Part shown: piece by piece, positions 275 through 3,656 of the stretch
Layout: each line of letters starts with the position of its first letter
How positions within the stretch are numbered: the stretch's first letter is position 1
Virus record (IMG/VR): IMGVR_UViG_2671180878_000023
From: a virus
Taxonomy: Duplodnaviria; Heunggongvirae; Uroviricota; Caudoviricetes
Direction: 5' to 3' (one strand)
Length of the DNA: 4,030 nt
Notes under the pieces: generated by a model
What the model saw: only the letters and a program-made list of their open reading frames with translations
What the model was told of the DNA's origin: nothing
Databases searched by the model: none
Translations under genes and position numbers: made by a program

Positions 275-481
275 ATGGAAAAAATCACAACAGGTGTGTC
301 ATACACCACGTCAGCGGTAGGGACGGGATACTGGTTACTGCAACTGCTGGACAAAGTCTCTCCGTCCCAGTGGGTGGCAATAGGTGTGCTGGGGAGTCTG
401 CTGTTTGGCCTGCTGACGTATCTGACTAACCTTTATTTCAAGATTAAAGAAGATAAGCGTAAGGTGGCGCGGGGAGAGTAG
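275..481 (+). CDS. S: Class II holin, pinholin of the phage 21 S21 family (68 aa)
   Basis: Translation [68 protein letters not shown] matches S21 pinholin in length and sequence as I recall it. Weakly hydrophobic Gly/Ala/Ser-rich TMD1, hydrophobic TMD2, charged C-terminal tail. GGAG at 260-263 sits 11 nt upstream of ATG 275. The track ORF 206-481 is an in-frame GTG extension with no better start. Confidence 0.9.
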
Positions 482-736: not shown

Positions 737-1051
737 CTACCTGAGCTTTGGTGATAGTAAGTTGAAAATTCGCATTTTTTGCTGACATGCGTAACGAGAA
801 TCCCATAAGCAGGGAGGACTTAATTCTTCATTAACCCATGCGTTGATATTATGTTTCAGCCGTTGAAGCATCAGCGGTGTTAATGTTGTGGTAATAATAT
901 CCAGCGTTTTATGTGAGATCTTACCGTAAGGGTCTGCAAGAATGCTGCTTGTTGCTTCGTTATTATCTGCCATCAGAAGAAGTAACTCTGATTTAACGTT
1001 TTCTGTCATTAGTTGTAAAAATCTTCTGCGCAAACTTTCTTTACTGTTCAT
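737..1051 (-). CDS. Hypothetical protein (104 aa) on the opposite strand, inside an AT-rich insert between holin and endolysin; function unknown
   Basis: Only substantial ORF in the 687-bp holin-endolysin gap (482-1168); no + strand ORF of 60 aa or more there. Insert is about 37-40 percent GC against roughly 50 percent or more in the lysis genes. Codon usage is AT-biased (TTA, CTA, AGG). Shine-Dalgarno is weak (GAAG about 10 nt upstream). I recognise no family. C-terminal 25 residues look less protein-like. Confidence 0.5.
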   Translation of the reverse strand: MNSKESLRRRFLQLMTENVKSELLLLMADNNEATSSILADPYGKISHKTLDIITTTLTPLMLQRLKHNINAWVNEELSPPCLWDSRYACQQKMRIFNLLSPKLR

Positions 1052-1168: not shown

Positions 1169-1702
1169 ATGAACGAAAAAATAAAATACGGCCTGTCGGC
1201 TGCCGTTCTGGCGCTGATTGGTGCAGGTGCTTCTGCGCCTGAAATCCTCGACCAGTTTCTGGATGAAAAGGAAGGTAACCACACCACGGCATACCGTGAT
1301 GGTGCGGGGATCTGGACCATCTGCCGTGGTGCCATTCTGGTGGATGGTAAGCCTGTTATTCCTGGCATGAAGCTGTCAAAGGAAAAATGCGACCGGGTTA
1401 ATGCCATCGAACGTGACAAGGCGCTGGCATGGGTGGAGAAAAACATCAAAGTGCCGCTGACCGAACCCCAGAAAGCGGGGATCGCGTCATTCTGTCCGTA
1501 TAACATTGGCCCCGGTAAGTGTTTCCCGTCGACGTTTTATAAACGAATTAATGCAGGTGATCGAAAAGGTGCCTGCGAAGCGATTCGCTGGTGGATTAAG
1601 GACGGTGGCAGAGACTGCCGTATCCGCTCAAATAATTGCTACGGTCAGGTATCCCGGCGAGATCAGGAAAGTGCGCTGGCGTGCTGGGGTATCGACAGAT
1701 AA
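1169..1702 (+). CDS. R: SAR endolysin, T4-lysozyme-like muramidase (GH24), phage 21 R21-like, 177 aa
   Basis: N-terminal Gly/Ala-rich weakly hydrophobic segment YGLSAAVLALIGAGASAPEIL is typical of a signal-anchor-release domain. Catalytic spacing E-x8-D-x5-T is present (EGNHTTAYRDGAGIWT), as in T4 lysozyme and R21. C-terminal part resembles R21 (RINAGDRKGACEAIRWW versus KINQGDIKGACDQLRRW as recalled). An in-frame stop lies 9 nt upstream of the ATG. Confidence 0.93.
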   Translation: MNEKIKYGLSAAVLALIGAGASAPEILDQFLDEKEGNHTTAYRDGAGIWTICRGAILVDGKPVIPGMKLSKEKCDRVNAIERDKALAWVEKNIKVPLTEPQKAGIASFCPYNIGPGKCFPSTFYKRINAGDRKGACEAIRWWIKDGGRDCRIRSNNCYGQVSRRDQESALACWGIDR

Positions 1703-2137: not shown

Positions 2138-2596
2138 ATGCTTTCCGCGTTTACCGTTATTCTGCTGGTGGTCTGTGGTGCGCTTAGTCTGGGGCTGAAT
2201 CATTACCGCGATAACGCCATCACCTACAAAGCGCAGCGCGATAAAAAAGCCAGTGAGCTGGATCTGGCAAACGCAACCATTACTGATATGCAGGTGCGCC
2301 AGCGCGATGTTGCTGCGCTCGATGCAAAATACTCGAGGGAATTAGCCGATGCGAGAGCTGAAAATGAAACTCTGCGTGCTGATGTTGCCGCTGGTCGTAA
2401 GCGCCTGCGGATCAACGCCACCTGCCCCGGTACCGTGCGTGAAGCCACCGGCACCTCCGGCGTGGGCAATGATGCCGCCGTCGAACTCTCTCCGGTTGCT
2501 GGACGAAACGTTCTCGGTATCAGAGACGGAATCATCAGCGACCAGGCAGCATTGAGAATGCTTCAGGAATATATCCGCACTCAGTGTATTAACTAG
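2138..2596 (+). CDS. Rz: i-spanin Rz (inner-membrane spanin subunit), lambda Rz homolog
   Basis: From Met 2138: [36 protein letters not shown]...[29 protein letters not shown]...QCIN. N-terminal TMD then [16 protein letters not shown], a coiled-coil region, and a C-terminal Cys, all closely matching lambda Rz as recalled. Alternative start GTG 2123 would add a short basic cytoplasmic tail (SINR) like lambda's MSRVT. The track ORF 1973-2596 is an upstream extension with no homology. Confidence 0.92.
2349..2555 (+). CDS. Rz1: o-spanin Rz1 (outer-membrane lipoprotein spanin subunit), embedded in the +1 frame of Rz
   Basis: [44 protein letters not shown]... has a signal peptide with lipobox VSAC and a proline-rich mature region, matching lambda Rz1 (MLKLKMMLCVMMLPLVVVGC...CVKPPPPPAW as recalled). 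Lies wholly inside Rz in another frame. GAGGGA sits 8 nt upstream of ATG 2349; Met at 2364 is an alternative start. Confidence 0.85.
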
Positions 2597-2619
2597 TATT
2601 TTTGTTATTCGGAGAATGC

Positions 2620-2844
2620 ATGAAGAAATTATTGGTAACCGTAAAGCCTTTTCAGGGAACAATTCCGTTCCGTATTTTGCAGCGTGGTCGTGTTCTTGTT
2701 GAAGGTTCGTTCAGTGGTAAATGTACGCAATTACACTCCCGGACCTTTCAGGTGAATGCCACGAATGAAGAGCTAACCGTTGAGTGTACGATGAATGCCG
2801 CTAAATGCCGCATGGTATCCGCTGCATTACAGCCAGTGTGTTGA
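2620..2844 (+). CDS. Hypothetical small protein (74 aa, basic, 4 Cys) directly downstream of Rz; function unknown
   Basis: ATG 2620 preceded by GGAGAA (2611-2616), 23 nt after the Rz stop, same strand. Codon usage looks host-adapted (CGT, GGT, GTT, AAA, GAA). Sequence MKKLLVTVKPFQGTIPFRILQRGRVLVEGSFSGKCTQLHSRTFQVNATNEELTVECTMNAAKCRMVSAALQPVC has no lipobox and no evident TM segment, so it is not a Bor-like lipoprotein. The track start at 2602 is a TTG extension. Confidence 0.55.
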   Translation: MKKLLVTVKPFQGTIPFRILQRGRVLVEGSFSGKCTQLHSRTFQVNATNEELTVECTMNAAKCRMVSAALQPVC

Positions 2845-3105
2845 GCGACCTTATTATTCATGCGCGGTATTGTCGCCGTATTCCTGCATTAACAGAGACC
2901 GCAGCCCGACCGGGAGAATCCTCTGCGCGAGTGTGCGGGGATAATCAAAAACGATACACACCGGGGTTTACCGCGTTAACGGAGCGCGGCGTTGTCCCCT
3001 CATGGTCGCTGGTCCGGTGCGATGGTGGAAGAAGCCGGATGTTTATCACTATTAATTGATAACACAGAAATGGATTCATTGATTTTCAGCACGTTTTTGT
3101 ATTCG

Positions 3106-3470: not shown

Positions 3471-3656
3471 TTACTTAATTATGTAATTCATACCCGAACG
3501 CTCTGTTGACAGCCTTCTTCTGCAGGCTTCAATAACCCACGCTGAAAAGTTACCGGAACCTTTATGTTCAAGGGCGATATTGAGCTGTTCAATCATGTGA
3601 TTGGGGAAACGGATATTGCGGATTGTGGTTCTGCGGGTCCGGTTTTTCGATGACAT
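3471..3656 (-). CDS. Small ribbon-helix-helix-type DNA-binding protein (61 aa), probably DUF3950 / YlcI-like
   Basis: MSSKNRTRRTTIRNIRFPNHMIEQLNIALEHKGSGNFSAWVIEACRRRL... has a basic N-terminus, a short beta-strand (TIRNIRF) and two helices, the pattern of Arc/MetJ/CopG RHH repressors. Strong SD on the minus strand (GAGGAAAG, 5-6 nt upstream of the ATG). I recall E. coli DLP12 YlcI being very similar, but that is memory, not a search. Confidence 0.8.
   Translation of the reverse strand: MSSKNRTRRTTIRNIRFPNHMIEQLNIALEHKGSGNFSAWVIEACRRRLSTERSGMNYIIK

Follow-up and report, generated by a model that had tools for sequence, protein, structure and literature searches.

The stretch of DNA analyzed here, referred to throughout as the window, is 4,030 nucleotides in length and comes from IMG/VR virus record IMGVR_UViG_2671180878_000023 (Caudoviricetes). 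It represents the late region of a lambdoid prophage resembling Stx phages. The element under study is a 74-codon open reading frame (ORF) that begins 23 nucleotides downstream of the Rz stop codon on the same strand. Table 1 lists the features of the window with their coordinates.

The preliminary description of this DNA, made from the sequence alone, placed the ORF on the Rz strand behind a good ribosome-binding site (RBS), and both statements hold. The product is 74 amino acids (aa) in length with an isoelectric point (pI) of 9.7, and contains 10 lysine and arginine residues and 4 aspartate and glutamate residues. Its cysteines are located at positions 35, 56, 63, and 74. The earlier list had three of these right, but placed the cysteine at position 63 one residue too far, at 64. 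The product has no hydrophobic segment. Its Kyte-Doolittle maximum of 0.76 (19-residue window) is too low for a signal or transmembrane segment, and a pattern scan found no lipobox, in agreement with the earlier statement that both signal peptide and lipobox are absent. The G+C content at third codon positions (GC3) is 0.44 for the ORF and 0.55-0.59 for the adjacent holin, endolysin, and Rz genes. Host-like codon usage, as first proposed, is a poor description of the ORF because its GC3 is below that of the neighboring lysis genes.

Table 1. Features of the window. Coordinates are nucleotide positions counted from the first letter of the window.
Feature	Coordinates	Strand	Remarks
P21-type holin gene	275-481		
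AT-rich ORF (38% GC)	737-1051	-	PHROG 1853, unknown; between holin and endolysin genes
Endolysin gene	1169-1702		
Bidirectional terminator-like site	1793-1825	both	13-14-bp GC-rich hairpin, T-runs on both strands
Hydrophobic ORF, 43 aa	1995-2126		PHROG 4906, annotated hypothetical; just 5' of Rz
Rz (i-spanin)	2138-2596	+	Pfam PF03245 Phage_lysis, E=9e-40
Rz1 (o-spanin)	2349-2555	+	embedded in Rz; Pfam PF06085, E=7e-21
Accessory cassette, ~270 bp	2597-2866	+	RBS, ORF, and ~20 nucleotides; missing from Sakai Sp15
Shine-Dalgarno sequence GGAG	2611-2614	+	5 nucleotides 5' of the ORF ATG; direct sequence reading
ORF under study	2620-2844	+	PHROG 2571 family; ATG, 74 codons, TGA
Conserved non-coding segment	2868-3045		right edge of the slot
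Hydrophobic ORF, 46 aa	3201-3341		PGAP WP_000347013.1; no family, hypothetical
DUF3950 gene	3471-3656	-	YnfO/YlcI-like
HNH endonuclease gene	right end of window		incomplete, runs off the end

Several spurious ORFs in the window are longer than the ORF under study, so its length alone is no evidence that it is a gene. A tblastn search found the frame intact in 28 phage records, with identities ranging from 100% to 34%. A 341-nucleotide probe centered on the ORF matched 1270 of 5426 complete Escherichia coli genomes (approximately 23%), with a median of two copies. Among the matches listed for the E. coli genomes, every row covering the ORF carries the Prokaryotic Genome Annotation Pipeline (PGAP) label 'hypothetical protein', and the RefSeq accession is WP_000735655.1. 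The ratio of nonsynonymous to synonymous substitution rates (dN/dS) is between 0.25 and 0.57 in ten pairwise comparisons (four alleles, protein identity 63-76%). The four divergent alleles differ at 79 first, 65 second, and 133 third codon positions, and the frame of the ORF is the only one open throughout all four. One Salmonella allele contains an in-frame deletion of five codons. The ORF is almost certainly a genuine gene under selection, and it is a widespread accessory gene of lambdoid prophages. The preliminary description had made its reading depend on conservation of the frame in related prophages, and the frame is conserved.

The ORF is an indel cassette of ~270 bp, located in the classical slot of bor. 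In Sakai prophage Sp15, the conserved segment that lies to the right of the ORF in the window directly abuts Rz (blastn alignment), and tblastn found no match to the 74-aa protein there. Compared with Sp15, the window contains approximately 270 extra bp. The conserved segment is about 185 bp in length and is more conserved than both the ORF and the flanking genes. Its core is nearly invariant in a four-way alignment that includes a Salmonella prophage whose ORF protein is 65% identical, and the matched stretch as a whole is approximately 81% (Salmonella) to 95% identical. The segment is present in 398 phage records, including lambda-type, 434, 21, and 933W-like Stx phages, and is always the right boundary of the bor/accessory slot. 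The order in phage 434 is Rz, bor (minus strand), segment, DUF3950 gene, and cosQ, and the order in Stx2 phage II is Rz, bor, and segment. The earlier positional remark, that accessory genes sit after Rz, is borne out by these two phages. The N15-like phage YDC107_1 contains two copies of the segment, one on either side of a 198-aa homologue of the ORF product.

The segment does not preserve a reading frame. A structured RNA was considered and rejected because no RNA-fold signal was found on either strand, and Rfam gave nothing in the region 2600-3100 at E<=1. The segment may serve as a linker for recombination or as a regulatory site in the DNA, or it may be the region upstream of bor.

Lambdoid and Stx phages are known to carry morons in the late region (PMC3430580). 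Under the criteria of Juhala and Hendrix, a moron is precisely present or absent in otherwise collinear phages, and this is the relationship between the window and Sp15. The base composition of the ORF is also unlike that of its neighbors, as given above for GC3. A third criterion is a promoter and terminator of its own, with expression in the lysogen; a consensus scan found neither promoter nor terminator. The Bor/Iss lipoprotein of lambda is encoded in the same slot, between Rz and the ~185-bp segment, and both genes are dispensable accessory cargo. They differ in that bor is on the opposite strand, while the 74-aa gene is on the late strand, and in that the 74-aa protein has no signal peptide, lipobox, Pfam match, or sequence similarity to Bor. 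Lysogens express bor from its own promoter, and its product is a lipobox-containing lipoprotein that is exported.

The ORF product matches the PHROG 2571 hidden Markov model with an E-value of 2.8e-28. The match aligns residues 1-73, and thus the full length of the window protein, but covers only columns 100-172 of the profile, which has 291 columns because it was built on long coiled-coil forms. The database annotation of PHROG 2571 is unknown function. Residues V6, F17, Q21, G33, K34, Y43, and V45 form a core that is invariant or nearly so in a 27-member alignment, and all seven are present in the window protein. Remote small members match the profile as well, as do proteins of 198-280 aa from N15-like phages, in which an N-terminal coiled coil is followed by the PHROG 2571 domain. 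Other long forms of the family have C-terminal extensions.

A word-indexed search among 5.8 billion proteins yielded 66 relatives, many of them cut off at contig ends. All relatives with a named source are from E. coli or Salmonella and are labeled 'hypothetical'. True members that are 72-82 aa in length and 25-40% identical were added by a profile search against 1.84 billion representatives, and a repeat search with a broad alignment brought in members from Yersinia and S. enterica subsp. diarizonae. The Klebsiella members were obtained from a genome scan. A single remote member used as query found no related loci in viral contigs. The profile matches P0080 (cystatin repeats), P0096 (DUF5122 propeller), P0081, and P0101 were discarded as false positives inflated by repeats.

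No family was found for the ORF product at E<=0.1 in Pfam, Lambda_Bor included, or in PADLOC, and there was no match in NCBIfam. A sequence search of the PDB, using both the single sequence and the profile, was also without a match. The preliminary description was thus correct that the protein is not Bor, and the clear homology to a characterized family that would have spoken against its reading was looked for and not found. For Cor, with which no direct comparison was made, the relevant results are the lack of any Pfam match and the absence of a signal peptide and lipobox. Its further statement that the protein resembles nothing recognizable stands as far as characterized families are concerned, but the protein had already been catalogued as PHROG 2571 and WP_000735655.1. 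The gene is a catalogued, uncharacterized gene, one more conserved hypothetical accessory gene of the lambdoid late region.

Among the E. coli and Salmonella members, C35 does not vary and C56 hardly does. C63 and C74 are confined to the nearest subfamily, whose C-terminal tail is distinct, and they lie at opposite ends of the predicted strand 66-71 (AlphaFold2 secondary structure). In the wider family, position 35 is occupied by T, A, S, or V and position 56 by H, L, or Y. No cysteine column is conserved across this wider family, cysteine counts range from 0 to 5, and several remote members have no cysteine. The fold is therefore independent of disulfides or metal. The pI of family members spans 4.7 to 9.7, so a basic charge is not a family trait, and nucleic-acid binding, an idea that arose from the basic pI, was ruled out on the same grounds. 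Judged from the family alignment, the four cysteines and the basic charge are lineage-specific and incidental. Neither the disulfide- or metal-stabilized fold nor the basic character put forward in the preliminary description holds for the family, and the ORF product is not a new cysteine-stabilized fold.

AlphaFold2, run with a 24-sequence alignment, gave a model with a mean predicted local distance difference test (pLDDT) score of 90.4 and a predicted template modeling (pTM) score of 0.76. The model has six strands (residues 2-8, 11-21, 24-35, 39-45, 52-55, and 66-71) and one short helix. Foldseek, which had been suggested in the preliminary description, was run with this model against the PDB and BFVD and returned nothing below E=0.07, and hence no specific relative. 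The neighbors it lists are generic beta-sandwich or jelly-roll proteins, namely carbohydrate-binding modules (CBMs), lectins, PNGase F, lambda J, and XepA. The ORF product is thus predicted to be a small beta-sandwich or jelly-roll-like domain without a specific structural relative.

XepA and YomS are beta-sandwich proteins from the lysis cassettes of Bacillus prophages, for which a role at lysis time has been proposed (PMC6834076). The likeness to the ORF product appears to be at the generic beta-sandwich level only, and dozens of unrelated sandwiches match at least as well. Their hosts are Gram-positive prophage carriers, and the PDB search with single sequence and profile found no sequence similarity. 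Members of CBM35/6/36, the lectins LecB/RS-IIL, and the N-domain of PNGase F share the overall beta-sandwich or jelly-roll shape. They differ from the ORF product in that the scores are at background level, with no sequence match, secretion signal, or obvious conserved ligand motif.

A consensus scan of the plus strand found no sigma-70-like promoter 5' of the ORF, and no terminator-like site in the interval that separates Rz from the ORF or 3' of the ORF. A weak 5-pair hairpin match is located inside the ORF at 2656-2671. With no promoter or terminator of its own, the ORF is most likely transcribed from the late promoter together with the lysis genes. The start codon of allele L002 overlaps the Rz stop codon (ATGA), which indicates translational coupling.

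In nearly all loci of sufficient length to be judged, homologues of the ORF product adjoin lysis genes. The homologue directly follows Rz in Stx phages (including L002) and in Salmonella. In two further sets, one from E. coli and one from Salmonella with an apparently truncated Rz, it lies approximately 0.4 kb 3' of Rz with no gene called between. The Klebsiella homologue follows an Rz that has no evident sequence resemblance to the window Rz, as judged by eye. Two phages with different Q and terminase types have the homologue after a Phage_holin_3_3/DUF2570 lysis set. The homologue in coliphage mEp237 is gp60, N15-like phages have it after Rz, and in two lineages it comes first among the late genes, with Q before it and the holin gene after it. 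In one Salmonella prophage (L010, 3091-3513), Rz is apparently truncated and the homologue is located approximately 490 bp downstream rather than abutting it. The intervening sequence is also found in E. coli locus L007.

One of the genes between Q and holin (L016, 4001-4546) encodes protein P0068, in which the PHROG 2571 domain is carried on the C-terminal tail of a DUF1327 protein. DUF1327 (PF07041) is likewise associated with lysis cassettes in Salmonella and E. coli prophages and is of unknown function, but no similarity was detected between the DUF1327 and PHROG 2571 domains. A DUF1327-type protein is encoded between the holin and endolysin genes in Salmonella, and in L012 the DUF1327 gene comes after the homologue. 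The window has no DUF1327 gene. A comparison of P0068 with L005 1663-2169 shows a domain swap, in which the DUF1327 N-domain is replaced and the C-terminal coiled-coil tail is almost identical.

A gene of approximately 70 aa (PHROG 4280, motif GWVLGWAVVR..PWHLVGVYAT) lies directly 3' of the homologue in six independent contexts (L005 4265-4471, L007 4194-4397, L020 4341-4559, L023 449-670, L024 371-589, and mEp237 gp61). The copies are 60-85% identical to one another and are better conserved than the PHROG 2571 homologue. PHROG 4280 was considered as an obligate partner and rejected. It is not required, since the window and many other loci do not have it, and Pseudomonas phages carry it by itself.

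On a short metagenomic contig (L029, 863-1147), the gene that comes after a fused homologue of 225 aa (P0077) has an Acb2/Tad1-hairpin Pfam match. Proteins of the Acb2/Tad1 type are sponges that act against the cyclic oligonucleotide-based antiphage signaling system (CBASS) and Thoeris.

The best overall explanation, to which a probability of about 50% is assigned, is that the ORF product is a late-expressed, non-enzymatic binding module that is possibly linked to lysis. The ORF would share a late-promoter transcript with S, R, Rz, and Rz1 and be translated right after Rz, with translational coupling to Rz in some alleles. Late co-expression with Rz is very probable. The product would be a soluble, cytoplasmic, single-domain protein, predicted to be a six-strand beta-sandwich. 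Its core residues look structural, with no recognizable catalytic or metal-binding motif among them. This, together with the coiled-coil fusions, is read as the mark of a non-enzymatic binding or adaptor module that would be made at the end of the lytic cycle. The non-enzymatic nature of the module is probable, with less confidence than its late expression. Since relatives lie beside unrelated types of lysis cassette, the likeliest role is to modulate lysis or a step that involves the envelope or the host. The product may thus act at lysis time, as its association with the lysis genes suggests, but this part of the explanation is tentative.

Several observations weigh against a link to lysis. 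The interval between the lysis and terminase genes holds mixed cargo, including bor, DUF4406, KilA-N, an aspartyl protease gene, and an Acb2/Tad1-like gene, so adjacency to lysis genes may reflect recombination convenience and not function. The gene is dispensable, as many close relatives do not have it, and its presence is independent of holin, endolysin, and spanin type, which argues against a specific lysis-protein partner. WP_000735655 and phrog_2571 were in no paper found, and searches with the ECO26_2257 and mEp237 gene tags gave nothing relevant. The main competing explanation draws on some of the same facts. It holds that the ORF product is cargo unrelated to lysis, such as an anti-defense, superinfection-exclusion, or host-takeover protein, carried at a recombination hot spot with conserved sequence at its edges. 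Other phages fill the slot with unrelated cargo, the conserved flanking segment is duplicated around the YDC107_1 homologue, and the independence from lysis-gene type and the low GC3 of the ORF fit as well, as does the Acb2/Tad1-hairpin gene next to one fused homologue. Yet the product has no match to PADLOC or to a known anti-defense family, it would be made only late because the ORF has no promoter of its own, and in P0068 the domain has been grafted onto a protein of the DUF1327 type that is normally encoded inside the lysis cassette. Cargo of this kind is a serious but still doubtful alternative.

The other explanations are much less probable. A lectin-like or carbohydrate-binding factor could be released at lysis, as are Stx and NanS-p from the same late operon, with its cysteines oxidized after release. 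The best fold neighbors are of the kind this calls for (CBM35/6/36, PNGase F, and LecB/RS-IIL lectins), the late operon of the source prophage has an esterase gene of the SASA/NanS-p type beside the ORF, and the window subfamily has four cysteines; this is nevertheless improbable. A role in virion assembly or DNA packaging is very improbable. The family is often found within 0.4-2 kb of terS/Nu1, just 5' of the terminase module, and there are weak fold matches to tail-tip proteins and one fused form with a weak Phage_Tail_Tip match. That Pfam match is below threshold, however, and the gene occurs with at least four different terminase types, is found also 5' of the holin gene far from packaging genes, and is absent from closely related viable phages. 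The reading first given to this ORF, a disulfide- or metal-stabilized lysogenic-conversion factor of the Bor/Cor type, has the lowest probability and is nearly dismissed. The four cysteines of the window allele and the location in the bor slot agree with it. The remaining evidence does not. No cysteine is conserved in the wider family, where some members are cysteine-free, and there is no CxxC pairing. The protein lacks a signal peptide and a lipobox, and its gene lacks a promoter of its own that could drive expression in a lysogen. A disulfide is moreover unlikely because the protein is cytoplasmic, and AlphaFold2 predicts a confident beta-sandwich.

A more far-reaching form of the preferred explanation is that PHROG 2571 constitutes a new lysis-accessory class of Gram-negative temperate phages, in which small oligomerizing beta-sandwiches tune the timing or efficiency of lysis, or else a late neutralizer of a host factor or immune signal. 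This is unlikely, though not to the degree of the three explanations just described. Such a lysis-accessory class would be functionally analogous to XepA/YomS or to cytoplasmic antiholin helpers.

For now, the ORF adds another conserved hypothetical gene to the cargo of a slot already well known to vary, and it would not surprise a specialist. What has been gained is the removal of the cysteine-fold idea, together with a confident fold, a family definition, and the boundaries of the slot. If a function is found, it would annotate a gene present, often in multiple copies, in approximately 23% of complete E. coli genomes, and in many Stx-converting phages. A lysis role, if true, could add a component to the well-defined lambdoid lysis module, and a role of a new class, if true, would be shared by over one-fifth of complete E. 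coli genomes, with several copies in each enterohemorrhagic E. coli (EHEC) strain. Abundance in pathogenic E. coli, the confident fold, and the steady association with the lysis module make the gene a reasonable and cheap experimental target. Phage mEp237 (gp60) and inducible Stx phages are tractable models.

Other features of the window lie on both sides of the slot. The terminator-like site is within the lysis cassette, with the endolysin gene on one side and the 43-aa ORF and Rz on the other, and late transcripts would require Q antitermination to get past its hairpin. Related phages have a plus-strand gene, labeled 'hypothetical protein' in one record examined, in the location of the minus-strand AT-rich ORF between holin and endolysin. 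The 46-aa hydrophobic ORF is located in an AT-rich insert that has the conserved segment on one side and the DUF3950 gene on the other.
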